Notes: a model not told the origin generated them from the letters alone. A stretch of 64,000 nt of DNA from Flavobacteriaceae bacterium (GCA_965659665.1 CBFHWU010000002.1:12336-76335); one strand, 5' to 3'. Numbered from the stretch's first letter, positions 43,548 to 64,000 are shown. Numbers and translations are program-made.

Positions 43548-43558
43548 TTTTTTAAAAA

Positions 43559-44407
43559 TTAAATATCAATTTGTACAAGACTTCTGTGATACCGCATCAC
43601 CACATTAGGATCGGGAAAGAGTGTTACGCCTGAAGCTCCTTTTCCTTCGTAATCAAACAAGGATAATACATATCTCATGCTTTCTAATCTAGCTTGTTTT
43701 TTACTATTTGTTTTTATGATAATCCATGGACTAAAATTGGTGTGGGTTTTACTAAACATTTGTTCTTTGTAGTGGGTGTATTGATCCCACATTTCTTGTC
43801 CTTTCATATCGACAGGACTAAACTTCCATCGTTTTAAAGGGTTTTTTAGGCGCGCATCAAATCTTTTTTTTTGTTCTTGTTTAGAAACTGAAAACCAAAA
43901 CTTTATCATTTTAAGATGGTCTTCATAAAGTAGGTGTTCAAACTCGGGAACTTGAATCATAAATTTTTCGTATTGTTTTTTGGAACAAAACCCCATTACA
44001 GGTTCTACGACAGCTCTGTTATACCAACTTCGGTCAAAAAATACAATCTCTCCGGGGTTAGGAAGTTTTTTGATGTATCTTCTAAAATACCACTGACCTT
44101 TTTCAACTTCGGTCGGTTTCGTCAGTGCTACTACCCTTGACGTTCGAGGATTAAGATGTTCTTTAAATCGTTTTATGGATCCTCCTTTGCCTGACGCATC
44201 CCTTCCTTCAAATAGAATGGCAACTCTATGATGTTTTTGAGCAATCCATTTTTGAAGGTTTACGAATTCAGATTGTAACTTAGCTAATTCTATTTCATAT
44301 TTAATTTTATTTAATGTTTTAGAAATGGAAATATTGTTTTCTTGAGCTAATTCAATTAAATCTTTTCTTTTTTTTGCTTGCAGTAGGTGGTCAGAATTAA
44401 AGTTCAT
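43559..44407 (-). CDS. ppk2: polyphosphate kinase 2 (single-domain), tandem paralog
   Basis: 282-aa ORF with FEGRDASGKGG and FDRSWYNRAVVEPV, the latter identical to its neighbour. Confidence 0.88.
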   Translation of the reverse strand: MNFNSDHLLQAKKRKDLIELAQENNISISKTLNKIKYEIELAKLQSEFVNLQKWIAQKHHRVAILFEGRDASGKGGSIKRFKEHLNPRTSRVVALTKPTEVEKGQWYFRRYIKKLPNPGEIVFFDRSWYNRAVVEPVMGFCSKKQYEKFMIQVPEFEHLLYEDHLKMIKFWFSVSKQEQKKRFDARLKNPLKRWKFSPVDMKGQEMWDQYTHYKEQMFSKTHTNFSPWIIIKTNSKKQARLESMRYVLSLFDYEGKGASGVTLFPDPNVVMRYHRSLVQIDI

Positions 44408-48343: not shown

Positions 48344-49121
48344 AGGATGTTGTTTGAAAAAAGCCAATTCATACCCCAAAAAAAAAGGAATGCGTAAAAA
48401 CGTTAAGTTGTTGAAAATACATCAGTAGGTTGTTAGATTTTAAAGATAGTTGATTTTTGAAACTACACAAATTTTTTTCTATTATTCCATCCGTTTTGAT
48501 GGGTGATTTAAAGGAATTGAGTCTATTATTTTTTTGTCATCGTCACCATTTTGACATGAGATTAATGCATTTAACATAAAAAAAAAATATTTAATTTTTT
48601 CGTTCCAACAATTTTTTCGTTCATATTTCTCCGTTAGCGAGCATTATATTCCGTCATTCAAATATGTCAAATTACTACTATTTGAGTTTATTTTTTCTAT
48701 GATTGGTCTAAAGTATTATATACACTTACATTCTTTATTAAAGAAGTGGGGTTTTCGAAATTAAAACCAATAAAATCATTAAAACATGATGGAGCTGCTG
48801 AAATAATCTCATCATTTGAAATGCTAAAACAGCCTCCTCTAGGAGGATTACCACTGCCACTTTCCGAAAAATATTTTATTGTTGAACTACAATTATTTGT
48901 TGCAGTAACCCTGCCGTTAAAAGTCCATTTATTTGTTCCTCCTACAACATGTGTAGAATACATAACTTGATTTTGTGATATAGTACGTTGACTAGAAACT
49001 TTTTGCCATCATGTATTAGATAAATTTTGTTTGTTCGCATTTTTAATAGCTACATCATATGCAACGGTCTTGTATAAGAACAGTAGCAGAGTAAATTTGC
49101 TATTACTTTCCGATTGAAAAT

Positions 49122-49175
49122 AAAAATAGCAGAAAAGACGAAACCTTTGGCTTAAAACTCTTTACTGCTATTTTT
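49122..49175 (-). terminator. possible bidirectional hairpin terminator downstream of the T9SS cargo gene
   Basis: An 11-bp perfect stem AAAAATAGCAG / CTGCTATTTTT (49122-49132 with 49165-49175) is flanked by A/T runs. The 32-nt loop is long, so the call is weak. Confidence 0.3.
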
Positions 49176-49206
49176 TTATATACCTTGTTAGCAAACGTTG
49201 TTTTAT

Positions 49207-49908
49207 TTATTCTTTTATGAATTTAATCGTATTTCCATTGACAAATTTTAAAAAATAAAGTCCGTTAGGGAAATTTATAATATCAATTTGTTCATTGTTA
49301 GACATAAATCCTTTTTTAATTTCAACCCCCAAAATATTATAAATTCTATAATTCTCTTTGTTAGTCAATCCAGAAACTTTAATAAATTCACTTGATGGGT
49401 TGGGAAATAATTTAATACTATTCTTTAATTCAAATTCGCTAGTGCTTAGAGCTTGGTTAGTAGAACGCTGATATGTAAATCCACCACCAGCACCACCTGA
49501 TGTCCAAGCAGTTATTTTAGTGTCAATATAAATGTCATCATTTATTAAGTGAAGTACTGCATCAACGTTTATTAGACTTTCAGGATTAGATGAATGAGCA
49601 TTATCCCATGTGTCAAATGTTAATGTGCCTACTCCATCAGCAATAGTACCAATTGCCCACTCTGTATCTATCGGACTAGTATAATTGGCATTGTCAAATA
49701 CAGTTTCTTGTGCAATGTTAAAAATTCCCTTATTATCAGCTCTAGTTAAAATAACGTTGGCTGTAAGAGCGTCTTGATTTGCTGGTAGTGTCCAATCAGC
49801 ATAATCTGCTTTTGTCAATGTAATAGTAGGCCCTGTCCATTCAGTTTGACCATATATCTGATTAAAACTGAAAATAAAAATTGTCACTAAAATGTAAATC
49901 TGTTTCAT
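49207..49908 (-). CDS. secreted protein with a T9SS C-terminal sorting domain
   Basis: A signal peptide begins at ATG 49908 (MKQIYILVTIFIFSFNQIYGQ). The C-terminus has the Por-secretion-tail pattern (KLFPNPSSEFIKV...GLYFLKFVNGNTIKFIKE). The upstream in-frame extension to 50124 runs through palindromic non-coding DNA. Confidence 0.75.
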   Translation of the reverse strand: MKQIYILVTIFIFSFNQIYGQTEWTGPTITLTKADYADWTLPANQDALTANVILTRADNKGIFNIAQETVFDNANYTSPIDTEWAIGTIADGVGTLTFDTWDNAHSSNPESLINVDAVLHLINDDIYIDTKITAWTSGGAGGGFTYQRSTNQALSTSEFELKNSIKLFPNPSSEFIKVSGLTNKENYRIYNILGVEIKKGFMSNNEQIDIINFPNGLYFLKFVNGNTIKFIKE

Positions 49909-49953
49909 TGTGTAAATTTTAATTATTAATATTCTGTTTTTAATGTTTGCTAA

Positions 49954-50141
49954 CGCCCGGCTAAACGCAGTGGGGTTCTGGATGTTGAGTTTTTCGAGTT
50001 TACTCGATAAAACACAACATACAATAAGCACCTTATCAAATTGTGATTTAGCCATTGATGTGGCATCGTTTTCTCTCGATGGGCAGTTAAAGCTGTATGT
50101 TAAATTATAGATCATAGCGAGCAATTTGGTTTAGCGGGGCG
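49954..50141. repeat. long-range 13-nt inverted repeat CGCCCGGCTAAAC / GTTTAGCGGGGCG (one mismatch)
   Basis: Read directly: the arms are 49954-49966 and 50129-50141. The right arm abuts the 82-nt structured repeat. It is flanked by CTAAC (49950-49954) and GTTAG (50226-50230). Confidence 0.6.
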
Positions 50142-50224
50142 ATGTAGCACATTTCCAAAGGGACGGGAGCGCGTCAACGGCGTGCGTAGTAACTTTGGTC
50201 AGCTTTTGCTGAATGTGCTACATC
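50141..50224 (+). repeat. GC-rich self-folding repeat, copy A (candidate att/attC-like site or small structured RNA)
   Basis: GATGTAGCACATT...AATGTGCTACATC closes a three-way-junction fold. It is 77/82 identical to 62749-62830 and far more GC-rich than its surroundings. Confidence 0.7.
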
Positions 50225-50550
50225 GGTTAGTATATGAAAAGCAGCGGGCTTTAAGCACTAACTTTTCGTTTTATAACTGACCTTTATGTTATTATTTATC
50301 TTTCCTTTAAGCACCAAAACCGCTATTTTTTTATATACCGCTTAGGTTTGTCTTTTAATAACTTAGACACTTAAACAGAAAGAATAAAAGAGAGCATTAA
50401 GGTTACTATATACGGTGAAGCTTTAGACTTCGACAATATTGATAATCCTCTTTCTTTTCTACTAAAAATCACGTTCAGTTCTGTGAGACTTTGATCTCGA
50501 TTTCAAGTTGTTGTGAATTGAGTAGATTATTCTTTCAACAATCAATAGTT

Positions 50551-50829
50551 ATGAATAAATATAATGAAACTTTTGGAATAGACATCAGTAAAGATGTTTT
50601 TGATTGTTATGGCAATGTTCAAGGTCATTTGCAATTTAACAATAGTGAAACAGGTTTTAAGAAGTTTCAAGAATTACTATCTAAAGATAGTTTGGTAGTA
50701 ATGGAAGCTACCGGTTATTATCATTACAGATTTGCCCAATTTTTGTATCTGTATTATAGGTTAAGTAGTAAGTTAAATCTAAAAATAATGAACCAAAAAC
50801 GCTTAATTAAAAAATTATGCCTCGCATAA
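50551..50829 (+). mobile_element. IS110-family (DEDD) transposase, N-terminal remnant only
   Basis: MNKYNETFGIDISKDVFDC...LVVMEATGYYHYRFAQFLY matches the IS110 N-terminal RuvC-like domain. Homology ends near 50745 and the ORF runs into unrelated sequence. About 75% of the gene is missing. Confidence 0.75.
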
Positions 50830-50864
50830 TAGTGTCTAAAATTCATTAAGAAAAGAGTTGTTTT

Positions 50865-51626
50865 TTAGCTCAGTTCTTTGTTGGCGATTTTTTTTATTCT
50901 ATTAAATAGTCTTTTTACCTGCAAATCCCCGAAACCGTATATACTCTCTCTTTTATTAAATTCTTTGAATACAGGCCCAAATTCTTCTGTTTTGAGTTCT
51001 TCTATTATCGCTAGCAATGATTTAACTGGTCTGCCTGGATATCCCTTGGTTGGTTTTCGCTCAATATGCGCTTCCACAGAGGGTAAAATAAATGGGTAAA
51101 TGGATTCTAGATCTCGTGCTGTGTTAATTAACTTTTCTAAATCGTCATTTTGATAAGAGACCCAAAGACTCGCAATTTTATTAAGCTTTGTTAGTGTCAA
51201 CTTGTTTTCATAAATGGAAATTAATTCAGACTGATTTAATCCTCCGAAGCCATATTGATTATGTGATTCAGGTCTAATGAGATAAATTGCATTCTTCTGA
51301 TTTCTTTTAGTCAAAAGATTTGCAACGAACCAAAAGTTTACTTGACAAAACAAATCATCCTCAAACCACAAATTAATATCAGAATTGTCATTTATGCTCA
51401 TTATTTTCTGGAACTCAGAAACCACTTTGTCATAATAGCCTTGTTCGGTTTCGCCATAACTCTGACTAAGAAATTTGGCTCTTGAACAAAACAACTCGTC
51501 TAGGTGATTTCCTTTCGCATTCCCATCCACAAAGCATTCTCGAATTACAATAATTTCCCCATCAATGTTTTCAGGGAACTCTTGTTTAAGGGAATCTCCG
51601 TTTAATATGTGGTATTGTTTTTTCAT
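50865..51626 (-). CDS. DUF1835-like protein
   Basis: 253-aa ORF whose N-terminus YHILNGDSLKQEF...IVIRECFVDG resembles DUF1835. There are no other recognisable motifs. Confidence 0.5.
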   Translation of the reverse strand: MKKQYHILNGDSLKQEFPENIDGEIIVIRECFVDGNAKGNHLDELFCSRAKFLSQSYGETEQGYYDKVVSEFQKIMSINDNSDINLWFEDDLFCQVNFWFVANLLTKRNQKNAIYLIRPESHNQYGFGGLNQSELISIYENKLTLTKLNKIASLWVSYQNDDLEKLINTARDLESIYPFILPSVEAHIERKPTKGYPGRPVKSLLAIIEELKTEEFGPVFKEFNKRESIYGFGDLQVKRLFNRIKKIANKELS

Positions 51627-51672
51627 CCTTTAATAATTGCTATCGACGGTTTTTAAAAGCGTAGAGGTGAGG

Positions 51673-52554
51673 TTATGCGCCATTTTCGCTTATACTTTGT
51701 TGTAGGTGGTTTTTTATTAATTTTCGATAATATCTTGTAAGTATCCTTTCAACTTTATTATCAGGAATTTCTTTTGAAATATTCATACCGTTTATCCAAA
51801 TTTTGGTTTTACTGTCTGATATTTTTTCAAGTGCAAATTGAAAATGTGTGAGTGTGTCTGTACCGATTATTATTCTATCAATTTTATAATATGGATAATT
51901 ATTCATCCAATTACTCGTGCTGTCTCTCCAGTAATACTCAAATCTATATCCTTCTTTAATCGGTAAACTGTCCATACTGACTGCATAATTGTTTTTCTTC
52001 AATATTTCTAATAATTCAGACTTACCATATTTTACAGTTTTGGTACATTTAAAGCATTTCAATTCTCCGTCTGAATAGGTGTATTTGTAATAAGCAGGTG
52101 GAGATGTAGCGATAAATATTATAGTAGCCGGAAGAAGTAGAATAACTGGATTTAAGCCTTTTACTTTAATTTTTAGTTTCTCAAATTCATTTATTTTATA
52201 CAAAAAAAAGTAAGAAATAGGTAAAAAACATAAAGCTACTAAATCCGAATAGTCAACTACTCTTGTAATTTTAATTAAAGTGATCTGATTGTAACCATCA
52301 ATAAATGATTGAGAAACTGGTGATTTCCAAAATATAAAGAAGAGACCAGTTAGAATTACATTTGTCTTTTTTGACCTAGGGAAAAGATATGTCAAAACCA
52401 TCGGCAAAATAAGAACTCCAATAAAATCAGATAATTTTCCAGTCAACCAATTGGAATATTCCAGCTTTAAATAATGGTCGTTAGTCAATAGAACTATTAA
52501 TCCTATTATAAAGACCAAATTCTGTAAATAATATTTTCGGTTTTCTCTGTTCAT
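51673..52554 (-). CDS. hypothetical integral membrane protein
   Basis: 293-aa ORF with about 5 predicted TM segments in the N-terminal 150 aa, followed by a soluble C-terminal domain. No family recognised. Confidence 0.55.
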   Translation of the reverse strand: MNRENRKYYLQNLVFIIGLIVLLTNDHYLKLEYSNWLTGKLSDFIGVLILPMVLTYLFPRSKKTNVILTGLFFIFWKSPVSQSFIDGYNQITLIKITRVVDYSDLVALCFLPISYFFLYKINEFEKLKIKVKGLNPVILLLPATIIFIATSPPAYYKYTYSDGELKCFKCTKTVKYGKSELLEILKKNNYAVSMDSLPIKEGYRFEYYWRDSTSNWMNNYPYYKIDRIIIGTDTLTHFQFALEKISDSKTKIWINGMNISKEIPDNKVERILTRYYRKLIKNHLQQSISENGA

Positions 52555-52776
52555 AAATCAAATACATCGTGTTTGTGTATGGTTTGTTGCGTGTTTTAAG
52601 CACCTAATTTAGCAAAAGGAAACCGAATAGAAAATCCGCGAGGATTTCAGAAGTAAGCCAGAACAATGCATAAAAAAAACATTAAATCGAGGAACCATAA
52701 GATTAATCAAACAGTAAATATTTGGTTTTAAGAAAACAGTACTGGAATTTTATAGGAGTGATTTTGCTAAGAAGTA

Positions 52777-53709
52777 TTAATTTTTCATTCCTATTTCTTT
52801 TAATTTTTTATTTAGAATTAATGATGCTTTCCTAGCCCCATTGTGGTTTAAATGATCTGCATCATAAAAATCAAAATAATCAAAACTTTCATGTTGAATC
52901 ATATTGTAATAAGTAACATGCTGGTTCAAACTATCCAAATAAGCGAGTGTATTGGTCATTTTATCTTTCTTTTTGGGATTTAATAGATCATAAAATTTTT
53001 TTGTATTGGGTAACGTTAGCAACACGATTTTTATGTCCTTATCATGACAATATTTAATCATGTTATCCAACAAAACTAAATTTTCCTCAAAATCAAATAG
53101 ATGATCTTCAATCGCTATAGCTCTTTTTTGAATTAAATCATCCGAAAGTCTTTGCTCCGAATAATCTCTATAATTAATTCCAAAACCAGAATCATTGCAA
53201 TTTGTAATCGATCCATCTTTTATATACCGGATGAATAATTTAACATTAGATCTTAAGCCTCTTGTGAAAGAAATGAAATAATTTCTTTTATCAAAAACAG
53301 AATTATTGGGAATCTCTACATTCATATAATGTTGATAATAATATTTTCTCCATATATTTTCTTTGTTTTCAACAAGTTCAGCAAGTGTAGTGTACTCAAT
53401 ATGTAAGATAATGCATTTTAAATTTTTAAATTTTGGGATATGTTTATCAAATAATAATTTATCATAATATAAAGTTTGACTTATCAAAGAAAAATTATAG
53501 GTAGAAAAATCGATATATTTAGGATTAATGCCATAAAACGGATGCGAATTACCGAAGACTAATATTTCAGCTTTATCATACTGAAATTGAATATCATGCG
53601 CTTTTTTTGTATAATCATTTTCAGCTGCTCTGTAAAAACATTCAAAGAAGAGGATCAGGATTACAATTGGTAAGATAAAAAGGAAGAGTTTTTTATATTT
53701 ACGAATCAT
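52777..53709 (-). CDS. membrane-anchored protein coupled to the MBOAT (DltD/AlgJ-like partner role inferred)
   Basis: 310-aa ORF with a single N-terminal TM. It starts 12 nt after the MBOAT stop. The function is inferred from gene pairing only. Confidence 0.55.
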   Translation of the reverse strand: MIRKYKKLFLFILPIVILILFFECFYRAAENDYTKKAHDIQFQYDKAEILVFGNSHPFYGINPKYIDFSTYNFSLISQTLYYDKLLFDKHIPKFKNLKCIILHIEYTTLAELVENKENIWRKYYYQHYMNVEIPNNSVFDKRNYFISFTRGLRSNVKLFIRYIKDGSITNCNDSGFGINYRDYSEQRLSDDLIQKRAIAIEDHLFDFEENLVLLDNMIKYCHDKDIKIVLLTLPNTKKFYDLLNPKKKDKMTNTLAYLDSLNQHVTYYNMIQHESFDYFDFYDADHLNHNGARKASLILNKKLKEIGMKN

Positions 53710-53721
53710 TGATTCCGAGAG

Positions 53722-55116
53722 TTAAAATTGAAAATAAATAAATTTTTGATCCGAATTATGGTAATGTAAAATTAGAAAAACAGCTAGATAATACATCCCA
53801 TATCTGATCATATGCTTGGAATAAAGCATATTAAAATAATTTTTGTGAAATCTAAATAAGAACTCACCACAAAAAGATGCACCTATTAAAAAAAGTAAAG
53901 CTTTAGGCAAAACATCAGGGAATTTAAAAGTTGACCAATCAAACAAATACCCTATGTAGGCAATTGAATGTGTCAAATTTTCTGAACGAAAAAAAATCCA
54001 TGCAAAGGAAACAAAAAGAAATGTTGTTATTGTAGCTAAAAAATCTGAACTTTTATTTTGGTATGAAGGAAAAAGCGATGAAACATAAAAACCAAAAAAA
54101 TGAAGTAAACCCCAGGCTACAAAGGTCCAATTTGCACCATGCCAAACCCCACTTATTAGAAATACAATAAAAACGTTTCTGAAGGTAATAATCTTATTTT
54201 TTTTGTTCCCGCCTAGTGGAATGTATACATAATCTTTAAACCAACTGCTTAATGAAATATGCCACCTGCTCCAAAATTCTTTGAGGTTGGCCGAAAAATA
54301 AGGCATTTTAAAATTATACATTAAATTAAACCCCAACATTTTAGCAATGCCTACCGCCATATCAGAATAGCCAGAAAAATCTCCGTAGATTTGAATACTA
54401 AAAAGAAAAACCCCTAAAGCGAGTGTACTTGAATTATAATTTTCATAATTAAAGAAAATATCATCTACATATACAGAGCATTGATCAGCGATTACGACTT
54501 TTTTAAAAAGCCCCCATAAAAATAATTTTAAACCAAATGAAAAATTTCTAGGATGAAGGAATCTTTTTTTTTCAATTTGGGTTAATAAATCCTTTGCGCG
54601 CTCTATTGGTCCTGCGATCAATTGCGGAAAAAAACCCACAAAACACAGAAATGAAATTAAATCGTTAGTGGGTCGAATTCTTTTCTTGTACACATCTATG
54701 GTATAACTTAATGTTTGAAAGGTGTAAAAACTTATCCCTAAAGGTAAAATTAATTCTAGGTAATGAATAGTAACTCTAATACCAAAAAATGTCAGCGAAT
54801 TAGTTACATTTTCTATAAAAAAATTATAATATTTAAAAGTAATTAACACACCAATATTAATAATTACACTAAACAAAAGATATCTTTTTTTTACATGTTG
54901 TCTTGTCTCATGGTATATTTTTTGGCCCATATTATAATCTAATAATGAACTAAAAATTATTAACGCGAGATAACTCCAATGCCAATAACCATAAAAAAAA
55001 TAACTAAACAATAGTAATAAAAGGTTTTGTTTTTTTAAGTCTTTATTAAAAACAAACCAATATAAAGTGTAAAAAACAATAAAAAAAACTCCAAAATCTA
55101 CTGAATTAAAAAGCAA
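53722..55116 (-). CDS. MBOAT-family O-acyltransferase (AlgI/DltB-like)
   Basis: 464-aa polytopic ORF with the MBOAT His motif RWHISLSSWFKDYVYIPLGG. It has an apparent TTG start (MLFNSVDF). Confidence 0.85.
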   Translation of the reverse strand: MLFNSVDFGVFFIVFYTLYWFVFNKDLKKQNLLLLLFSYFFYGYWHWSYLALIIFSSLLDYNMGQKIYHETRQHVKKRYLLFSVIINIGVLITFKYYNFFIENVTNSLTFFGIRVTIHYLELILPLGISFYTFQTLSYTIDVYKKRIRPTNDLISFLCFVGFFPQLIAGPIERAKDLLTQIEKKRFLHPRNFSFGLKLFLWGLFKKVVIADQCSVYVDDIFFNYENYNSSTLALGVFLFSIQIYGDFSGYSDMAVGIAKMLGFNLMYNFKMPYFSANLKEFWSRWHISLSSWFKDYVYIPLGGNKKNKIITFRNVFIVFLISGVWHGANWTFVAWGLLHFFGFYVSSLFPSYQNKSSDFLATITTFLFVSFAWIFFRSENLTHSIAYIGYLFDWSTFKFPDVLPKALLFLIGASFCGEFLFRFHKNYFNMLYSKHMIRYGMYYLAVFLILHYHNSDQKFIYFQF

Positions 55117-55309
55117 AATATTACAATAAGTAAGTGAAAATATGTAAAAAAGACTATACTATCAATATTGTTTATGTTTTAAATAAATTATATTAAATAA
55201 ATATAGCTAAATCGATAAAAAATAACATTAATTTTTTGAGCAAAAACCCAAATTATAGCATTAAAAAATATCGCTGTAACTAAGGCTATACCTCATAAAA
55301 AGTGTGTAT

Positions 55310-55854
55310 TTATTTTTTGGTTATTTCGTAGCAAAAATGTTTTTCGTATGCAGGATGATTAATCATTTCAGGATGATTGAATTCTCTCTTTTTTTGTCAT
55401 TCCTATTTTCTTCATAACATTTTGGGATTTATTATTCTTTATCGGGCAGACTGATATTATTTTATTTATACCTAATTCATTAAATGCATATTCAAGACAT
55501 TTCTTTCCACCTTCTGTTGCATATCCTTTTCCCCAGGCATTTCTTTTTAATCTCCAACCAATATCAATTGCAGGAGTAAATGTTGTTTTATAATCTTGAA
55601 ATGCAAGACCTATCATTCCAATAAATTCATTTGTTTCTAATATTTCAGCTGCGTAGTATGTGAATCCATTTTTAGCAAAATGGTTTCTGAGTTTATCTAT
55701 GAGTTTCTCAACTTCTTTTTTCGATAGTGTATTTCGGAAAGTGTTCCATTACATCTTCATCAGAATTTAACTTTGCAAATTCTTCCAAATCTTCGTTTCT
55801 CCATTTTCGAAAACCTAATCTCTCTGATTTAAATATGTATTCGCTTTTATTCAT
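55310..55854 (-). pseudogene. GNAT (RimJ/RimL-like) N-acetyltransferase disrupted by two homopolymer frameshifts
   Basis: Own translation gives three frame segments. The first is MNKSEYIFKSERLGFRKWRNEDLEEFAKLNSDEDVMEHFPKYTIEK. After a shift at the T6 run near 55725 it continues EVEKLIDKLRNHFAKNGFTYYAAEILETNEFIGMIGLAFQ...KIGMTKK. After a shift at the T7 run near 55391 it ends REFNHPEMINHPAYEKHFCYEITKK. Confidence 0.75.
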
Positions 55855-55878
55855 TTTTAAATGGAAGCTAACCCAGTG

Positions 55879-57294
<1,416 letters not shown>

Positions 57295-57354
57295 TTAATA
57301 ACACATAAGGGTTTGGAGTATGTAGAGTGGCGAGCTATTTCCCAACATATTTTT

Positions 57355-57897
57355 TTATATATATATGGTGTCGTTATTTTTAAAATTCCTTATCAGCTCC
57401 AAGTCAGTTAATTTAACTCCACGAAATGTTAGAACTTCAAGATTTTCATGTTGTGACACACTTTCTAATCCTTTTTTCATTCCATCAACATAGAAATATT
57501 TTAAATCCTTTAGGTCAGAGACAAAACTTAAATCAATAGCTACAGATTTTGTTTCGCCAATACTCAGTGCTGTCAGTTTAAGATAGTCACGAATTGGAGT
57601 AAAATCTGTAGTCATATAAGATGAAATAGTGAATTTTTTTACAGCTTGTAAATACTTTAAAAAGTTAAAATCCACTGTGTCATCCCACGAAATTCGTAAT
57701 CTTATATCAGGATATTTTTTGTAGAAGTTATTGAGAACTTTCCAAGTTTTTTTGTTTGGGTTTTTAAATTCAAAAAACTGAATTGTATGGATATTTGGTT
57801 CTTTTATCAATTTTGAAATATCAGAATTCCTGAGATTATTATAGATGTTGATATTCCCACTGAAATTTTTCCAATTTTTTTGTTCAATTAATTTCAT
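57355..57897 (-). CDS. hypothetical protein with leucine-rich-repeat-like periodicity
   Basis: 180-aa ORF with repeated L..L..L/F segments in the C-terminal half (LKLTALSIGE, LKDLKYFYVDG, LEVLTFRGVKLTDLELI). No family recognised. Confidence 0.5.
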   Translation of the reverse strand: MKLIEQKNWKNFSGNINIYNNLRNSDISKLIKEPNIHTIQFFEFKNPNKKTWKVLNNFYKKYPDIRLRISWDDTVDFNFLKYLQAVKKFTISSYMTTDFTPIRDYLKLTALSIGETKSVAIDLSFVSDLKDLKYFYVDGMKKGLESVSQHENLEVLTFRGVKLTDLELIRNFKNNDTIYI

Positions 57898-57975
57898 TTA
57901 GTATTCGGTTTCTGTAATGCACTACATCGGTTTTGTTTATGATACCTACCCTGAAAAGGGTGTGTGCTAAACAGC

Positions 57976-58701
57976 TTATTTTGGCGTTATTATTTTTATT
58001 GTTTTTTTATTTTCTACTGTTATTTCTGAGCCTTCAACTAACATTACCGAAATTGGTTTGGTTGAATTTAGAAATTCGAATTCCTTTCCGTACACAGTAC
58101 CAAAGTTTATATCAATTTCATAATTAGTCACTTTATAGGCTTCCCACTTTGGGTGGGTAACTTCATATTCATTGGATTTAGTACGATTTACTTTTGCATA
58201 GCCCCAATAGTGTTCTGTAATAAATTCTATCTCACTATTTGATTCTATATTGAATTTTTCAATACTTGCATCAATTTTTATAAAATTCCATTTATTTGAT
58301 TTTTTCCATCTGTATTGCACAGTTCTTTGTTTGTGGTTTGAACTCCAAGAGTGTTCCATTGGCAATGTTTCATAATTTTCATTATACACTGTATTTGCCA
58401 CAAAAGTCAAAGCTCGTTTCGGAACAATTTCTTTGATAAATACAACTCCTCTTTTCCATTCTCGATTGTCAAATCGTTTAACGTAGAATCGTAAATTAAC
58501 TTCTTCGAAGTTTGAATGAAATGGAATTTTAACCCCTAATAGTTTAGTATTTAAAAACATAAATCCGACTAAGCTAACATAGCATTTTCCATTCCACAAG
58601 TCTAATTCGGTACCAACAGGAAGATATTTGTCAAGTAGTTGCTTATCAATGATATAATTCGCTAATGCGAGTTTTCTCCATTCTGCTTTTATAAAGCTCA
58701 T
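57976..58701 (-). CDS. DUF2071-family (YqjF-like) protein
   Basis: 241-aa ORF whose N-terminus AEWRKLALANY...LDLWNGKCYVSLVGFMF and NLRFYV are typical of DUF2071. Confidence 0.65.
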   Translation of the reverse strand: MSFIKAEWRKLALANYIIDKQLLDKYLPVGTELDLWNGKCYVSLVGFMFLNTKLLGVKIPFHSNFEEVNLRFYVKRFDNREWKRGVVFIKEIVPKRALTFVANTVYNENYETLPMEHSWSSNHKQRTVQYRWKKSNKWNFIKIDASIEKFNIESNSEIEFITEHYWGYAKVNRTKSNEYEVTHPKWEAYKVTNYEIDINFGTVYGKEFEFLNSTKPISVMLVEGSEITVENKKTIKIITPK

Positions 58702-58782
58702 ATCGTTTCGTTTTAGTTGCCCTAAGGGTTTGTGTCGTTTATTATTAAAAAGTGTAAAAACACTGCTTCAGTTTGTCTTTTG

Positions 58783-59367
58783 TTAAATTGAAGCTAATGT
58801 TAATATTTCAGGGTATGTTCCTTTCCCCTTGTTCAGAAAGTCTACCCCTTGTTTTATTCGTTTGTTTAATTGTTTAGATCCTGGTCTTTGGCTTAATAAA
58901 TCTTCAATTTCATTCATATATTTTTTAGCAGTTTTATGATTTTTATTTTCAACGTTTAAAGCAGCAATAAAAAGTTTGAAGTCCATTTCATTCACAAAAA
59001 AACGCACTCCCTTGTTCATTAATTTTCGATGTTTCTTTATTATTTTTTTACTGTCCCTTACATTCAACCACTTGGATAATGATGAGCAGTAAAATTCATT
59101 TACGTCTGAATAATGTTTTTCGAAGTAATACCAAAGAGAATCAAGTCTTCGAATTAAAGTTTTGTGTGTGTCTTTGATATCATATTTCCATTAAAAAAGT
59201 AGTTATAAGAACCCCCAGCGTTTATACCAGTAAAATTTTGTTTATTTATTTGATTAGCATAAACAGTATTAGCAGAAAGTATTTTATAATTTGCTGCATT
59301 CTTTTCCTTCTAGTTCTAATTTAAGGTCAAGAACTGCGCCTTTAAAAGTAATTTCGATTTTGTTCAT
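58783..59367 (-). pseudogene. hypothetical gene split over three frames (two single-base frameshifts)
   Basis: Own translation gives three frame segments from ATG 59367. They are MNKIEITFKGAVLDLKLELEG, then KNAANYKILSANTVYANQINKQNFTGINAGGSYNYFF, then WKYDIKDTHKTLIRRLDSLWYYFEKHYSDVNEFYCSSLSKWLNVRDSKK..., which runs to the stop at 58783. The shifts fall at short A/T runs. Confidence 0.5.
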
Positions 59368-59384
59368 ATGTATTTGGTTTTAAT

Positions 59385-60104
59385 TTATGTGCTAAGTGGT
59401 AAATCTCTTTCACCGTATGTGTAAGAACTACTTCCTAAGTTTGATATATTGTTGATGTTGCCTACGTTGAACTCAGACTCCCAAGGGTCAAGCAGCCTTT
59501 CGTTAGGGCTAAACCCTGTAAAATCCCCAGTTTTATTTTCATTTCCTGTAATACTTTGCCAGTCATTCCAAATTCTATCAACATTCGCATGATGAAGCCA
59601 GAATAATGGATCTCTTGGGGAGAACATAGGGTTACCCATTATTCCACCAACAAAATTATGCCCCCTGTTATGTGGTCCAACTTCTAGTTGTTTAGTAAAC
59701 GAATAAAAGTCAGAATTAGATAGAATCGTAGTTATTTCGCTTTCATCTGTAAAATCAACATTTCTTATATGTCGGTTATTATTTGGAAGGGCTGTAATTT
59801 TACTTGGGATTTGTGTGTCTTTTGTCCAATCCCAATATGGTATAAAAACACTTGGGTTAATTCTTTGCAAAGCTCTTTCAAAGACAAGTAGATAGGCTCT
59901 ATGCCAGGGTAAAAATCTAAGAAACCCTAATCTTCCTGACATACTACCATGCATTCTATGCCTAGCCATGAAACTTGTTCCCATTGCAGCATGATGCATG
60001 ACAAATGACTCATATAATCCATCATTGAATAATTTTTCGACTGCCGAATTAAAATTTAACCAATCTTCATCGGTCATTTGCTTAGAACTTTTTCTTATTG
60101 TCAT
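59385..60104 (-). CDS. small type-3 copper protein (tyrosinase / polyphenol-oxidase family)
   Basis: 239-aa ORF with a CuA region (HH..M...FLPWHRAYL) and a CuB region (HNRGHNFVGG...DPLFWLHHANVDRIW). No signal peptide is visible. Confidence 0.82.
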   Translation of the reverse strand: MTIRKSSKQMTDEDWLNFNSAVEKLFNDGLYESFVMHHAAMGTSFMARHRMHGSMSGRLGFLRFLPWHRAYLLVFERALQRINPSVFIPYWDWTKDTQIPSKITALPNNNRHIRNVDFTDESEITTILSNSDFYSFTKQLEVGPHNRGHNFVGGIMGNPMFSPRDPLFWLHHANVDRIWNDWQSITGNENKTGDFTGFSPNERLLDPWESEFNVGNINNISNLGSSSYTYGERDLPLST

Positions 60105-60130
60105 TTTATAGTTTATTTAGTTTTTAATTT

Positions 60131-60194
60131 GCTACAACGGTTTGAATATGGTGCGTATCCCGCAGGGTATGCATTATACACCTTGTTGTAGGGC
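60131..60194. repeat. 64-nt imperfect palindrome with AAC...GTT outer boxes (attC-like candidate)
   Basis: The outer box CTACAAC (60132-60138) pairs with GTTGTAG (60185-60191). Two bulged T bases follow. The central stem is GCGTATCC/GGGTATGC, with two G.T pairs that exist only on the plus strand. Confidence 0.5.
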
Positions 60195-60199
60195 GTTTT

Positions 60200-60778
60200 T
60201 TATTCAATAATATCTTCAAAGATTATTTCATTTTTTACTTTGCTAATTGAAATTCTCCTAAAAGCCGGAGCATAACCTTTTTGTCCACTTGGTTCGCAAT
60301 ATTCTCTAACAAAAGCAAATTCAGTTTCATAGTTTTGAATCACTTTGGGTCCAAAATATCTTTTGTCCGACATATAAAGCACCTCTTCAACAGAATTATT
60401 TTCCGCTTGAAAATTGTCCGAGTTTTTGATTTTGTTAACAGCATTATTTTTATCTCTTTCAGATATTTCTAAAGTGAAAGTATGGTAATAATCACCTATT
60501 GCTGACATGGATTCATTATTAACAAGTTCGAACTCGTCAATTAGTTCCATTCCTTGTTCTTCAATAAGTCTTTTTGCATTATTCTCAGTAAAAAGCTGAT
60601 CCTCAAAAACTATGAAGAATGTAATTGCTAGTACAATTAAGCCGTATCCAATTATAAGATATGTTGAGGCCTTTGGATATCCAAGCCGTTTAGGAATGAA
60701 ATATAGGAGAAGTCCAACTCCGACAGGTATTCCTATAAATACAAGCATTAATAAACCTATGAATAGATATTCGTCCAT
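60200..60778 (-). CDS. hypothetical membrane protein (2 N-terminal TM segments)
   Basis: 192-aa ORF with no recognisable family. Confidence 0.5.
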   Translation of the reverse strand: MDEYLFIGLLMLVFIGIPVGVGLLLYFIPKRLGYPKASTYLIIGYGLIVLAITFFIVFEDQLFTENNAKRLIEEQGMELIDEFELVNNESMSAIGDYYHTFTLEISERDKNNAVNKIKNSDNFQAENNSVEEVLYMSDKRYFGPKVIQNYETEFAFVREYCEPSGQKGYAPAFRRISISKVKNEIIFEDIIE

Positions 60779-60859
60779 TGATATTTCGTTTTTTTTAATG
60801 CCCTACTAGTGTGTATATACTCCTTTAGGGGTGTTTATTTTCGTTATGTTTTTGTTTTT

Positions 60860-60898
60860 GTTCAACAATACTTCCCCAATCAGCATGTATTGTTGAAC
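60860..60898. repeat. perfect 12-bp stem / 15-nt loop hairpin at the 3' boundary of recombinase remnant 1
   Basis: GTTCAACAATAC-N15-GTATTGTTGAAC, 2 nt beyond the stop of the 60901-61233 ORF. It has the same architecture as 63551-63589. Confidence 0.7.
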
Positions 60899-60900
60899 TT

Positions 60901-61233
60901 TTATTCAATGTAACAATCATCTAAAGGGTTTTTTATTTTTCCAATTTCTTGAACGGAAACCCGTGTATAAAGTTCCGTTGTTTTGCGGCTATTATGCCCC
61001 AATAAAACCTGTATAGGTTTCAAGCTAACCCCCTGTTCCAATAAATGTGTTGCAAAACTATGCCGCAACATATGTGGAGTTACTCTTTTTTGAATTCCAA
61101 CAAGTTTAGCTTTGACTCCCTCGGGTTGTGTTTGTTTTTTGACCAAATCCAATAACGCCTTGTCATAAGCAAAATCTAGTTTTACAATAGCTTGTTGTTT
61201 GTGAACGTCGGGTATTAATCGTAGGTTTTTCAT
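60901..61233 (-). pseudogene. tyrosine recombinase remnant (internally deleted: about 35 N-terminal plus about 75 C-terminal residues)
   Basis: The C-terminus [39 protein letters not shown]...KIKNPLDD carries the R-H-x-x-R/H...Y catalytic box. At 110 aa, against the roughly 300+ aa usual for this family, it cannot be functional. Confidence 0.75.
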
Positions 61234-61324
61234 TACTAGAAAACAAATCTGGGGGGTTGTCTATCTCTAAATTTGCAAAAAATTACCAACTTCCAAAATG
61301 TACATGCTGCTTTTCTCTTATGTT
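61221..61324 (-). repeat. 104-nt conserved leader of the recombinase module, copy 1
   Basis: About 90% identical by eye to 63808-63911. It covers the start codon, the first codons and about 90 nt upstream. Confidence 0.8.
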
Positions 61325-61870
61325 TAGCGAATTTATTTGGGGCTTAATCATTTTCAAAAGTCCAATTCACCTCCATCAGAATGCTTATCATCCGTATAAT
61401 GGTAAGGAAAATATTTTTTACACACGCTCATTAGGGGTTAATGAGCACAAAACAAGGGTGAACGGTATGTTTTTGTATGGAAATGGTCATTATTAACCTG
61501 ATAAAAGCTGTAGGTAAAATCCTACATTTAGATCGTGAGACAACTCATCAAATTGAACGTTAAATATTAAAAAATAAAAGGAAAACAGAGGTTTTAATTA
61601 GCGGTATAGCATATCAAAAGTGACGAACAAAAGCGAGCTATGATTTCTATGTAAAAGATAACACGTTTATTTAAGTTGTAGCAATTGTCTTTATTTCTAT
61701 TATCATTTTTAAAAAATTAATGTTTCATCATTAAAAACTTGTAGGCTACATCTATTTAAAAATTATTTTTTTTTTATATTTGAGAAACCCAAATTTTTCT
61801 GACCCATGAAACAATTTACCACTCCATGGTTGTTTTCCCTTTTTTTAGTTGTCGATTTAACTTTCAATTA

Positions 61871-62572
61871 ATGAAAAAGAAATTAAGATTAATCGTAGAG
61901 GACAACAATTCTAAAAAAGGAAAATTATTTAATTATTTTATACAGGCATTGGTTATCCTGTCACTTATTTCATTTGCTGTCGAAACTTTGCCCAGCATTT
62001 CACCAAACGCAATCGATATGCTTAATGATTTTGAATTGTTTTGCGTATTGGTGTTTACGTTAGAATATTTGTTAAGGATTTATGTGTCAAAAGAACCTTT
62101 AAAATATATATTTAGTTTTTATGGAATTATTGACCTTTTAGCTTTTTTTCCATTTTATTTCAGATTAGCCTATGATTTTAGAGCTTTACGTATTTTTCGG
62201 ATTTTTAGAGTATTAAAACTAATCCGTTATAAAAAAACGCTTTACAGATTCCATATTGCTGCTAAAATAGTTAAAGAGGAGATGATTTTGTTTTTTTTTG
62301 TTACCTCAATATTCATATTCCTTGCATCGGCAGGTATTTACTTTTTTGAAAATAAAGCGCAGCCCGAATTATTTAGCTCTATATTTCATAGTGGTTGGTG
62401 GGCTATAGCAACATTAACGACAGTTGGTTATGGCGACGTTTATCCTATTACTATGGGGGGGAAAATATTTACTTTTTTTATTCTTTTAATTAGTATTGGA
62501 GTGGTTACAGTTCCGGCAGGATTAATTGCCAGTGCTTTATCTAAAGCACGTGAAATAGAAGAAAAAAATTAA
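61871..62572 (+). CDS. voltage-sensor-type K+ channel, accessory-region paralog (no zinc-ribbon tail)
   Basis: S4-like RALRIFRIFRVLKLIRY and filter TTVGYGD. ATG 61871 (MKKKLRLIVEDNN) is preferred over the 61826 extension. Confidence 0.82.
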   Translation: MKKKLRLIVEDNNSKKGKLFNYFIQALVILSLISFAVETLPSISPNAIDMLNDFELFCVLVFTLEYLLRIYVSKEPLKYIFSFYGIIDLLAFFPFYFRLAYDFRALRIFRIFRVLKLIRYKKTLYRFHIAAKIVKEEMILFFFVTSIFIFLASAGIYFFENKAQPELFSSIFHSGWWAIATLTTVGYGDVYPITMGGKIFTFFILLISIGVVTVPAGLIASALSKAREIEEKN

Positions 62573-62746
62573 ACAAATTGTTTTTAACTAATCAATCTTA
62601 AAAGAACTTTAAAAGGTATTAAAACTAGCGTTACCATGTGTGGTTAATTACGTTGGCTAGGACTAGTTAATAAACAAAAACGAACAATAGGAAAATCCGT
62701 AGGATTATCCGAATACACACAAACAAAACAATTGACTATACTCCGT

Positions 62747-62830
62747 GTTGTAGCACGTTTCCAAAGGGACGGGAGCGCGCCAACGGCGTGCGTAGTAACT
62801 TTAGTCCGCTTTTGCTGAATGTGCTACACC
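62747..62830 (+). repeat. GC-rich self-folding repeat, copy B
   Basis: It has the same orientation as copy A. There are 5 differences in 82 aligned nt by manual alignment. Confidence 0.7.
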
Positions 62831-62946
62831 GTTCAGATAAGCTCAGTGAGCATATCCATTCGGGATGATTTTAAAGTTGATATCTTGCACTAAAATGTGT
62901 TTACGGTTCAGTTTGCTCATTAAGCTTATTGTTTGTTATCAGCATC

Positions 62947-63324
62947 TTAATTGGTGCTTTCCCACAATATTCTAATTTCTACTAATTTATCTAATGATAT
63001 GTTAGAACAACTGTCTTCATTTCTATTCCCATCAACTATGTGGCAAACAGTTGCTCCGAGACAATTATACAATTTAAAATTATTATCATCTCCATAAGAA
63101 ATTAGGGTATCCTGTTTGTACGTATACAATTTGGAAGAATTATCTGGAGGATTAGCTATGGTACTTATTCCATTTTCACCATACAACCAATCATAATCAT
63201 CGATCAATTTTTTTAACCATGTTAATTCTTCAATGGGATTTTTGTAATTACATTCAATTGGTTCAATTTTTTCTTGACAATAAAGAAAAAGCAAAAGAAA
63301 AAAAGCCATACATAACTGTTTCAT
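62947..63324 (-). CDS. small lipoprotein, hypothetical
   Basis: ATG 63324 gives MKQLCMAFFLLLFLYCQEK (a lipobox-like Cys). The upstream in-frame part of the 62947-63540 ORF is a different, remnant domain. Confidence 0.55.
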   Translation of the reverse strand: MKQLCMAFFLLLFLYCQEKIEPIECNYKNPIEELTWLKKLIDDYDWLYGENGISTIANPPDNSSKLYTYKQDTLISYGDDNNFKLYNCLGATVCHIVDGNRNEDSCSNISLDKLVEIRILWESTN

Positions 63325-63561
63325 TATTTTGAGGGGATTATAATTTGTTTTGATATAATTTGTTTGTTGCTTCAATAAATATACCGTAAGCTTCAAGCTA
63401 CTTAAATTTATTAAGGAAACCTTATCATCAATTTCTTTTTGAAAAACATGATTACCCAATAAATCAGTTACGATTACATTAAATTTTAAGTCCTCATTAT
63501 AATAGCTTACAAAATCAATAAATAAGACATTATTAGTCACGGGGTTAGGAGTGTTGTTTAG
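63325..63561 (-). pseudogene. remnant of a T9SS C-terminal sorting domain (body of the gene missing)
   Basis: LNNTPNPVTNNVLFIDF...VIVTDLLGNHVFQKEI...INLSSLKLTVYLLKQQTNYIKT fits the Por-secretion-tail pattern. There is no upstream cargo domain and no stop of its own. It reads straight into the lipoprotein ORF. Confidence 0.45.
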
Positions 63562-63589
63562 CTTACTTTTTCGGAGGGCTAAACAACAC
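63551..63589. repeat. perfect 12-bp stem / 15-nt loop hairpin at the 3' boundary of recombinase remnant 2
   Basis: GTGTTGTTTAGC-N15-GCTAAACAACAC. The arm sequence resembles the 60860-60898 arms (9/12) but in flipped arm order. Confidence 0.7.
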
Positions 63590-63820
63590 GTTATTATTTT
63601 TTTGAATTCCTAAAGAATCAAAAGGATTCTTTATATTTTCAAACCCTTTTTTCGTAATATGTATAAAGTTTTCAGTGGTCTTGCTACTACTATGCCCTAA
63701 TAATTCTTGAATATATCCTATGTCTGTCCCTTGTTTAATTATGCGAGTAGTAGTAAGCGTACCTGTGTTTAAAGTTGCTAATCGTCGCCGGAATTCAGGA
63801 ATGAGTAGTAGGTTTTTCAT
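63563..63820 (-). pseudogene. tyrosine recombinase remnant 2 (more degraded)
   Basis: MKNLLLIPEF... then GTDIGYIQELLGHSSSKTTENFIHITKKGFENIKNPFDSL. It has the same N-terminal codons and C-terminal box as remnant 1 but is only 85 aa. Confidence 0.7.
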
Positions 63821-63911
63821 TACTAGAAAACAAAACTGGGGGGTTGTCTACCACTAAATTAGCAAAAAATTACCAACTCCCAAAATGTACATGCTGCTTT
63901 TCTCCCATGTT
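63808..63911 (-). repeat. 104-nt conserved leader of the recombinase module, copy 2
   Basis: Aligned by eye with 61221-61324, including the shared string ctggggggttgtcta and ccaaaatgtacatgctgcttttctc. Confidence 0.8.
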
Positions 63912-64000
63912 CCGCTATTATGTAATCCCATGTTTACATCAATTGCATAACCAAAACGGAACGAAAATCACCAACTGTGTCGCTCTGTACTAAGGAATCA

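Follow-up and report, generated by a model that had tools for sequence, protein, structure and literature searches.

An accessory-gene island around broken tyrosine-recombinase elements and a 290-base folded module in a marine Flavobacteriaceae bacterium

The window, a 64,000-nt stretch of DNA from a marine Flavobacteriaceae bacterium, ends in 16 kb of an accessory-gene island arranged around broken copies of a small tyrosine-recombinase element and an undescribed 290-base folded DNA or RNA module. A sequence-only reading had placed an abrupt switch from core genome to a decayed mosaic at about 48.4 kb, and this switch is real. The island has a coding density of 0.765 versus 0.92 to 0.96 in the core, a median ORF length of 218 versus 318 aa and a GC content of 31.2% versus 35.8%, with its GC3 mostly under the core mean. 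The boundary zone (48380 to 49206, minus strand) consists of a 317-nt spacer, an 88-aa ORF (48697 to 48963) and a 243-nt spacer with a terminator-like hairpin (49119 to 49178), and it is collinear in metagenome contig L007. The 88-aa ORF had no family match; judged by eye, its C-terminus resembles the start of a T9SS sorting domain. The window lacks tRNA and tmRNA genes as well as any tRNA T-arm motif, and none of the curated covariance models of Rfam 15 matched it at the gathering score. At E ≤ 1, the sole Rfam match within 47 to 64 kb was a chance miRNA-like one on a terminator hairpin.

The gene list of that reading was matched by gene calls and family matches across the island. A T9SS cargo protein with a Por_Secre_tail domain is encoded at 49207 to 49908 on the minus strand, and its probable start (MKQIYILV) lies 28 nt past the end of the module. 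At 50491 to 50829 on the plus strand, the proposed IS110 remnant is present as a truncated N-terminal transposase relic with a GIDISK motif, although the match to PF01548 is weak (E = 0.0011; 19.2 bits, below the cut-off of 29). Members of the IS110 family are DEDD transposases with an N-terminal PF01548 and a C-terminal PF02371 domain. About 60 to 90 N-terminal residues are left here, and the remnant is a relic, not a functional IS; its presumed left end lies about 15 to 20 nt from the module hairpin. Ten accessory ORFs on the minus strand (50865 to 60778) are matched in order and sequence (99.6 to 99.8% identity) in metagenome contigs L003 to L006. They comprise DUF1835, a 293-aa membrane protein, a 310-aa protein plus MBOAT, a GNAT pseudogene, RtcB, a 180-aa protein, DUF2071, a 94-aa protein, a tyrosinase and a 192-aa membrane protein. 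The GNAT pseudogene (55117 to 55878, minus strand) is frameshifted by two 1-nt insertions compared to a 99.6%-identical metagenome contig that bears an intact 180-aa version. At least two frameshifted genes had been claimed; GNAT is one, but the second case (57357/57359) is a TA-repeat slip altering only a C-terminus. Further to the right are a voltage-gated-type K+ channel gene (61871 to 62572), the sole plus-strand island gene besides the IS110 relic, and a lipoprotein gene (62947 to 63540, minus strand; probable start MKQLCMAFF). The latter is preceded by a sorting-domain fragment at about 63340 to 63540, which confirms the T9SS-domain remnant suggested earlier.

Metagenome contigs of the same population (99.6 to 99.9% identical) were collinear with the window over 50.9 to 60.8 kb, and no unit-wise variation was seen among them. 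No close relative was found in the genome collection, the best match having 56% amino acid identity. The count of 16 minus-strand ORFs out of 18 in the island was reproduced, but this one-directional layout does not set the island apart, since the core beside it (29.7 to 48.4 kb) has the same strand bias, with 17 of 18 genes on the minus strand. The orientation of the island genes probably just follows the neighboring core and does not reflect cassette logic.

The conserved structured non-coding module of ~290 nt is located at 49937 to 50228 on the plus strand, so that its folded strand is antisense to the neighboring genes. The consensus fold reached −110 kcal/mol on the plus strand versus −90 kcal/mol on the minus strand, one-sided changes preserve G.U pairs solely on the plus strand, and compensatory changes were observed at four pairs. 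Substitutions fall 5/8/9 by codon position, and the module is therefore not coding; it also matched no Rfam family. Copies in metagenome contigs L008 to L012 showed 88 to 97% identity, and those of L009 and L012 agree at 99% over 216 nt. The module occurs in six different contexts in which both flanks differ, and no conserved promoter was found in the 5' flank. In five or six of these contexts, the module ends 6 to 45 nt ahead of the start codons of unrelated genes. Similarity stops at a GTT, yet some 15 nt past it are semi-conserved. In L008, two copies 1.3 kb apart flank a single gene, and in L012 one copy is interrupted by a 1.8-kb insert. The outer end of the module forms a GC-rich three-way-junction hairpin of 88 to 90 nt (50138 to 50227, plus strand; 111.9 bits), the closing stem of which is GATGTAGCACATT/AATGTGCTACATC. 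A partly degenerate, hairpin-only second copy (62744 to 62833, plus strand; 100.2 bits) is a direct repeat of it, 12.6 kb from the full module, and these two are the only hairpin copies in the 16 kb. Breakpoints at the hairpin-only copy and in L012 are irregular, as expected of illegitimate deletion. The module copies of the window and L011 have no adjoining recombinase or U element (see below).

Two long repeats were found in the island, one of 144 nt (61181 to 61324 and 63768 to 63911, 83% identity) and one of 88 nt (50143 to 50230 and 62749 to 62836). The palindromes ascribed to many spacers were scarce: a local hairpin exceeded shuffles in stability (z < −2) in only 5 of the 17 island spacers and in 0 of 12 core spacers. 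Motifs common to spacers had also been proposed. A modest k-mer excess over shuffles was indeed seen, but no k-mer occurred in three or more spacers. The 13-nt motif GATGTAGYNNATT occurs 10 times versus 2.8 expected, and five minus-strand copies sit in island spacers; three copies are additional to those in the hairpins, a post hoc observation. Further copies of the 13-nt core lie shortly before three other island genes. Between the tyrosinase and 192-aa genes, a 60-nt palindrome (CTACAAC...GTTGTAG, 60132 to 60191; z of about −2.9) includes one copy of the motif.

The two tyrosine-recombinase remnants of the sequence-only reading were confirmed at the right-hand end of the island, in the same direction as the genes. 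Relic 1 (60901 to 61233, minus strand; 110 aa) joins 35 N-terminal residues to the C-terminal catalytic end, and an identical protein is on record from an NCBI contig. Relic 2 (63563 to 63820, minus strand; 85 aa) lies 0.7 kb beyond the partial module copy. The 144-nt repeat gives both a common 5' flank, and its upstream part forms a conserved "left end" at 61234 to 61324 (minus strand) ahead of relic 1 and at 63821 to 63911 ahead of relic 2. The family in the protein database consists of relics of 70 to 190 aa, many of 108 aa, with differing internal deletions and, in some, mutated catalytic Arg residues. The relics derive from XerA/IntI-like enzymes of 360 to 400 aa; they end in an IntI-like C-terminus (..IKNPLD) and score similarly on integron-integrase and XerC/D models. 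With NF040815, the NCBIfam model for XerA-like "site-specific tyrosine recombinase/integron integrase" (cut-off 220 bits), the window relics, being fragments, scored 78 and 31 bits. Among seven full-length relatives, six just passed at 220 to 240 bits and the seventh scored 200.6.

Next to relic 1 is an element that we call U (60798 to 60893, minus strand; z of −3.6/−6.3). It contains a conserved hairpin (GTTCAACAATAC..GTATTGTTGAAC) and a second small hairpin, terminates in ..GTATATACACACTAG, and is conserved in five loci. Beyond U comes the module hairpin in L008, L010 and L012, and a degenerate copy of the first 13 nt of that hairpin in the window and L014. The relic-plus-U units of L014 and L022 are 90.5% identical and have no complete module; the core genes behind which they stand differ, being a PPK2 pair and a Pyr_redox gene. 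In L013, a recombinase relic stands behind uvrB; after the relic units of L013, L014 and L022 come accessory genes and contig ends. In L009, a relic converges on the hairpin end of the module. Metagenome contigs from this and related organisms break at relic, U and module elements, as expected of repeats.

The proposal that the region resembles an integron or CALIN cassette array failed every test that we ran, namely those of attC sites, spacers, strand bias and the integrase model. Such arrays contain two or more attC sites, which are R''-L''...L'-R' imperfect palindromes of 57 to 141 nt with RYYYAAC/GTTRRRY cores, spaced by less than about 4 kb. A strict consensus-plus-fold scan gave 4 candidates, none of which folds, versus 0, 2 and 4 in core segments of the same size; a relaxed scan gave 2 versus 0, 0 and 1. 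A home-made covariance model built from 8 real attCs recovered attCs on control plasmids at 17 to 57 bits, including two outside the training set, and missed 2 of about 11 control sites. Its best match in the window had 12.7 bits (E of about 1) and lay in a coding sequence. No attC site above background was therefore detected in the window by the two scans and the model. IntI is a tyrosine recombinase with an IntI-specific additional domain, for which the window relics are too short to be judged directly. Their closest full-length relatives scored 185 to 221 on TIGR02249 (cut-off 265) and 128 to 148 on NF011946 (cut-off 435). These matches are broken into two parts, of which the first runs to about profile position 180 to 200, and the split of the TIGR02249 match falls where the IntI-specific insertion would be. 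The longer relic P0126 has no insertion between LREYF and TPHMLRH. The full-length relatives fail both models, which speaks against an identity of the relics as integron integrases.

The island is thus not an integron cassette array, though it partly behaves like one. Its genes are short, functionally unrelated and in the same direction, the folded strand of the module is antisense to them like the bottom strand of attC, conservation of the module ends at GTT just ahead of the next start codon, and the recombinase is Xer/IntI-like with an ..NPLD C-terminus. However, the island has no attC and most of its spacers are unstructured, the recombinase lineage lacks the IntI insertion, fails the IntI models and is present in several copies, and the putative site is ~290 nt long and occurs once or twice per 16 kb. 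The reading as a canonical sedentary integron or CALIN, in which attC would separate the cassettes, is favored by the gene layout and the C-terminus of the relics, but it is already largely refuted by the attC and integrase results and seems extremely improbable.

The locus is best explained, and with somewhat better than even probability, as an insertion hotspot (48.4 to 64 kb) where small site-specific mobile elements accumulated and then decayed, and accessory genes were brought in or trapped. The architecture of the element was reconstructed from relics because no intact element was found. On the minus strand, it would comprise a short left end, a gene for a XerA/IntI-like tyrosine recombinase of 360 to 400 aa, a two-hairpin U segment of ~100 nt ending in ..GTATATACACTAG and, beside U, the 13-nt core GATGTAGCACATT, which would be the closing arm of the 88-nt hairpin that opens the ~290-nt module. 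The window holds at least two internally deleted recombinases; in addition, it has a single U, a complete and a hairpin-only copy of the module, and a few core-like 13-mers, with the IS110 relic beside the hairpin of the complete module. The relics and repeats are present in the window and recur in other contexts. The mosaic may have arisen by insertion through the recombinase at the hairpin core or next to it, and subsequent deletions and IS activity may have destroyed the recombinases. Because there is one relic per unit and relic-plus-U units follow different core genes, self-encoded small integrative elements fit better than one resident integrase. The module and the relic-plus-U unit may be independent elements that merely associate, since the latter occurs in L014 and L022 without a complete module.

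Similarities to other mobile systems were also found. Tandem tyrosine-integrase islands at structured RNA genes (tRNA/tmRNA genes; marine "tycheposons," bioRxiv 10.1101/2020.12.28.424599) likewise show integrase relics at unit boundaries, a structured element that is partly duplicated as a direct repeat, decayed units in tandem, AT-richer accessory cargo and adjoining core genes. However, the repeated element here is not a tRNA or tmRNA, belongs to no Rfam family and occurs in several contexts; the recombinase is XerA/IntI-like with a Bacteroidota-type N-terminal domain; and relic-plus-U units stand behind several core genes, not at one att locus. In a tRNA/tmRNA island, the RNA gene bounds one side and its 3' part is directly repeated on the opposite side, whereas the direct repeat in the window is part of an unclassified structured module. 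As with non-autonomous, MITE-like deletion derivatives of mobile elements, the same derivative (a 108-aa relic plus U) occurs in different genomic contexts, and such derivatives may have been mobile in trans. The Xer-type recombinase and modular mosaic make-up are reminiscent of these derivatives and of Acinetobacter pdif modules, which are Xer dependent. No terminal inverted repeats, target-site duplications or 28-bp dif-like sites were recognized. Members of IS110/IS1111 insert beside repeated palindromes (REP or attC targeting). The IS110 relic, which starts near the module hairpin, might have targeted it in this way, although the IS is truncated and its ends cannot be defined.

Two other explanations are each improbable in our view. 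The module could be a resident plus-strand non-coding RNA gene whose 3' hairpin serves as an island attachment site, as tRNA and tmRNA genes do; the 88-nt direct repeat would then mark attL/attR of a 12.6-kb island (50231 to 62833), to the right of which more islands would have been added in tandem. The strong structure, the G.U-compatible substitutions on the plus strand only, the classical island signature of a complete copy with a direct repeat of only the 3' end, and the positions of the relic in L009 and of relic 2 agree with this. However, the 5' flank of the module also varies everywhere and shows no conserved promoter, near-identical copies lie in different contexts and even within 1.3 kb of each other (L008), no Rfam family matches, and relic-plus-U units stand behind core genes without a complete module. 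The region could also be an ordinary variable one where unrelated relics (IS110, recombinase fragments and a REP/MITE-like repeat) gathered under weak selection with no common mechanism. Decay throughout (low density, pseudogenes), the collinearity of all population contigs and the merely modest k-mer excess are consistent with such a history, but two observations argue against it: relic, U and hairpin core stand together in a fixed order at five or more independent loci, and two relics, two hairpins and motif copies are co-oriented within 14 kb.

An undescribed integron-like platform, with the module or its 88-nt hairpin as a folded single-strand recombination site (attC/attI-like), is unlikely as well. 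A XerA/IntI-like recombinase would recognize this site and insert promoter-poor genes right after its ...ACGTT end. The sequence-only reading had considered an analogous Bacteroidota site-specific system with its recombinase end rightward, and the relics at the right end, U and the module before unrelated genes lend this some support; the single relic per unit and the relic-plus-U units behind different core genes fit self-encoded elements better. The short distance from the GTT, where similarity ends, to the ATG of unrelated genes, the antisense folded strand, the module-gene-module order in L008, the co-oriented relics upstream with their similar scores on both kinds of model, and the 13-nt core ahead of three other genes all favor the platform. 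Against it, most genes have no separating site and only two hairpins occur, several relics (one per unit) replace a single resident integrase, the module has two to five times the length of any attC, the sequence past GTT remains semi-conserved, breakpoints are irregular, and population contigs lack unit-wise variation.

The integrons reported for Bacteroidetes are limited to In0 elements and one complete integron (PMC9024848), a point in favor of such a platform. There is a small chance that marine Flavobacteriaceae possess an undescribed site-specific gene-capture system in which a XerA/IntI-like tyrosine recombinase acts on the 88-nt three-way hairpin of the ~290-nt module, with the functional strand antisense to the captured genes and new genes placed immediately downstream. 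If true, such a system would be functionally analogous to integrons, in a phylum that has hardly any canonical ones.

To the right of 48.4 kb, coding density was 0.765, compared with 0.92 to 0.96 in the part of the window to the left (the core), the median ORF was 218 aa instead of 318 aa, and GC was 31.2% against 35.8%, with GC3 mostly lower as well. The switch out of the core described by the sequence-only reading was thus borne out for this island (48.4 to 64 kb), and Pfam and NCBIfam confirmed essentially every gene it had named. The one-directional layout was also real, with 16 of 18 island ORFs on the minus strand, but so are 17 of 18 core genes at 29.7 to 48.4 kb; the layout runs on from the core and is therefore not an island property. 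Two frameshifted genes had been proposed. The GNAT gene (55117-55878) was truly broken, being inactivated by two 1-nt insertions (55387 and 55732), neither in a long homopolymer; it is intact in L003, a 99.6%-identical metagenome contig of the same population, and both insertions are absent there. The other case was a TA-repeat slip at 57357-57359 (region 57355-57360) that alters the C-terminus of a 180-aa protein. Read from the sequences, these lesions point to recent, strain-specific decay. The lowest GC of the window (27.5 to 28.4%, 52000-56000) coincides with the MBOAT gene and its 310-aa partner, which suggests an origin of this two-gene unit separate from that of its neighbors. The core contains two unusually long spacers, upstream of clpB (41454-41981, 528 nt) and smpB (38098-38394, 297 nt), neither with an ORF, an Rfam match or a significant hairpin.

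The island had been likened to a sedentary integron or CALIN-type cassette array. In Bacteroidota, canonical integrons are nearly absent, and just In0 elements and one complete integron have been reported (PMC9024848). A strict attC scan for RYYYAAC...GTTRRRY pairs that lie 50 to 150 nt apart and must fold returned four candidates in the island; core segments of equal size gave 0, 2 and 4, and no candidate folds as an attC. A relaxed scan for AAC/GTT palindromes gave two in the island against 0, 0 and 1. Our attC covariance model, trained on eight genuine sites of class 1 cassettes in five plasmid integrons, recovered controls at 17 to 57 bits, including two non-training sites, and missed arr-3 and dfrA5; its best match in the window was at background (12.7 bits, E ~1), within the K+ channel gene. 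The two recombinase relics (60901-61233 and 63563-63820, both minus strand) scored similarly against the XerA, XerC, XerD and integron-integrase models and, being fragments, fell far short of every cut-off. Their closest full-length relatives have 360 to 400 aa, and six of seven just pass NF040815 ("XerA / integron integrase", cut-off 220) with scores of 220 to 240, the remaining one scoring 200.6. These relatives fail TIGR02249 (185 to 221 against a cut-off of 265) and NF011946, and at the place of the IntI-specific insertion their matches to both models break into two stretches. The island is not a canonical integron or CALIN. The observation behind that label was largely real; the label itself is wrong.

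Many spacers had been said to carry palindromes and shared motifs. A local hairpin stabler than shuffled sequence (z < -2) was found in 5 of 17 island spacers versus 0 of 12 in the core, but the rest were plain and no k-mer was common to three or more spacers, so this claim is only partly true. Long repeats aside, the longest motif shared by two spacers is a string of ~20 nt, GCTATTTTTTTATATACC (49167-49186 and 50322-50341), at the 3' foot of two hairpins flanking the T9SS cargo gene and the module described below. Between the tyrosinase gene and that of a 192-aa membrane protein lies a 60-nt near-perfect palindrome, CTACAAC...GTTGTAG (60132-60191), with a GC-rich internal hairpin; it is attC-sized with AAC/GTT ends, yet scores at background with the attC model. 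The 13-nt hairpin arm GATGTAGYNNATT was counted 10 times where 2.8 copies would be expected, with five minus-strand copies in island spacers, three of them 1 to 22 nt before a start codon. This recurrence in spacers and near starts is suggestive, but it was noted post hoc. The motif AAGGTRTATA, recurrent by eye, was not enriched when tested, and scans for sigma-70 promoters and terminators gave nothing informative.

Repeat searches revealed a 144-nt pair that takes in, at each of the two recombinase relics, the start of the relic and the flank upstream of it. They also revealed a GC-rich direct repeat of 88 nt (50143-50230 and 62749-62836). On the plus strand, the left-hand copy of the latter folds into a very stable three-way junction (-47.8 kcal/mol, z = -5.6), and a covariance model of this hairpin found only the two copies within the window. 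A pattern scan of metagenome contigs yielded four with the element, and a protein look-up added a fifth. Alignment identified the hairpin as the outer end of a ~290-nt module (49937-50228), whose copies are 88 to 97% identical (99% over 216 nt between contigs L009 and L012) and have different flanks on both sides in every contig. The consensus fold reaches -110 kcal/mol on the plus strand of the window versus -90 on the other. Six substitutions on one side of a pair leave a G.U pair on the plus strand, where the other strand would have a C.A mismatch, and at four pairs both sides have changed with pairing kept. Substitutions fall 5/8/9 by codon position in an apparent small ORF, which is therefore not coding. 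No Rfam family matches the module.

On the gene strand, the module ends in ...GCGGGACGTT. After a further 6 to 45 nt comes a start codon, and the gene it opens is unrelated from context to context: the T9SS cargo protein in the window, membrane proteins of 309 aa in L008 and 144 aa in L009, a 655-aa NTPase in L011 and a 205-aa secreted protein in L012. Semi-conservation persists for ~15 nt beyond the GTT of the module. L008 carries two copies 1.3 kb apart with one gene between them. In the ENA metagenome contig L012 (1-2450), a 1.8-kb three-gene insert splits the module and is flanked by a 70-nt duplication of module sequence. The insert encodes a T9SS-CTD protein, an Lcl_C-domain protein and bAvd, the latter two being typical accessory parts of diversity-generating retroelements; it contains no reverse transcriptase. 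In L009, ~0.9 kb from the module and a recombinase relic, a tRNA 3' fragment (13075-13115, minus strand; T-arm GGTTCGAATCC and acceptor end) occurs with no complete tRNA; it looks like a scar left at this hotspot by another integrative element, one that targets tRNA genes.

Together with other short proteins (70 to 190 aa, many of 108 aa), the recombinase relics form a large family whose members keep the N-terminus MKNLRLIP... and C-terminus ...IKNPLDDFY of the full-length enzyme; the internal deletions vary, and some members have lost catalytic arginines. Directly 3' of the relic stop codon lies a conserved segment with two hairpins, U (60811-60893 in the window), which ends in ..GTATATACACTAG. 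U abuts the module hairpin in L008, L010 and L012; in the window and L014, the first 13 nt of the hairpin come after it in degenerate form. A putative recombination core has the sequence GATGTAGCACATT. Relic plus U is 90.5% identical between L014 and L022, where different core genes precede it (a PPK2 pair and a Pyr_redox gene, respectively), indicating that one deletion derivative reached several sites. A relic follows uvrB in L013, and U with the module follows leuB in L010. Contigs often end at relic, U or module elements because repeats break assemblies. In the window, the tandem PPK2 pair is followed by DUF2911 (42774-44407), and in the related metagenome contig L014 (8304-10327) directly by a 108-aa relic and U; the element thus used this site in that relative but not here. 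Right after the 130-aa relic behind uvrB, L013 has a 1.6-kb AT-rich stretch without a called gene (10394-11962), in which 44 nt of the module interior survive; this is the same arrangement, in another genus and further decayed.

Several other identities were considered and rejected. The hairpin is not an IS110 bridge RNA or left end, as five contigs carry the module without any IS110 gene. A small protein gene (pseudo-ORF MSNNLKYSFNCPSREND...) was dismissed for its lack of codon-position bias and its just two protein clusters. The bAvd and Lcl_C neighbors in L012 prompted a comparison with diversity-generating retroelements, but a reverse transcriptase and a VR/TR repeat are both missing, and those genes interrupt the module. 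A tRNA or tmRNA attachment site was discarded since neither is present in the window. Flavobacteriaceae plasmid XerA genes were not accepted as this element, being homologues in a resolvase context. The 88-nt element had no match in viral contigs, phages or plasmids, and searching viral contigs with a full-length recombinase relative found nothing.

The source organism, which has low GC, belongs to the Maribacter/Zobellia clade of Flavobacteriaceae, and its core proteins are just 55 to 62% identical to those of the nearest sequenced relatives. The sole relative found in a genome-collection scan, Pseudozobellia, is 56% identical and its synteny is uninformative. One sampling series yielded several short metagenome contigs that match the window at 99.6 to 99.9% identity; all are collinear with it and show no unit-wise variation. 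Since no movement was observed, we infer the mechanism. The simplest account is a decayed hotspot of repeated small-element insertion, which would have received several copies of a site-specific element composed of a left end, an XerA/IntI-like recombinase, U, and the hairpin core or module. An IS110 would also have landed beside the hairpin, and all of these would since have decayed, with accessory genes between them.

Alternatively, the module could serve an integron-like platform as a large, folded site for recombination; its geometry at gene starts, the folded strand antisense to the genes and the module-gene-module order in L008 all suggest this. There are, however, too few sites, and most spacers are plain. 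The presence of one relic per unit, and of units after different core genes, fits self-encoded integrative elements better than one integrase with many cassettes. The module could also be a resident ncRNA gene serving as an attachment site. A complete copy and a 3'-end-only direct repeat, here 12.6 kb apart, are a classical island signature, but the 5' flank varies too and copies recur close together. Repeated insertion of small elements stays the simplest account, and the region is a decayed mobile-element hotspot with an undescribed structured module and a widespread recombinase-relic family, both of which merit follow-up.

The accessory genomes of marine Flavobacteriaceae are very fluid. 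At this locus, three parts recur together in an ordered way: an XerA/IntI-like recombinase, the conserved segment with its hairpins, and the long module, whose structure is strand-specific and which sits directly upstream of accessory genes unrelated to one another. For the annotation of such hotspots, the sequences of the module, of U and of the relics of 108 aa can serve as handles. If the association is not an active mechanism, the look of a cassette array, with short unrelated genes on the same strand and recombinase relics, can come from co-orientation and repeated insertion and decay. If it is active, it would show how these bacteria gather accessory genes beside core genes, and would contribute either a novel structured RNA or a folded recombination site of a new type.
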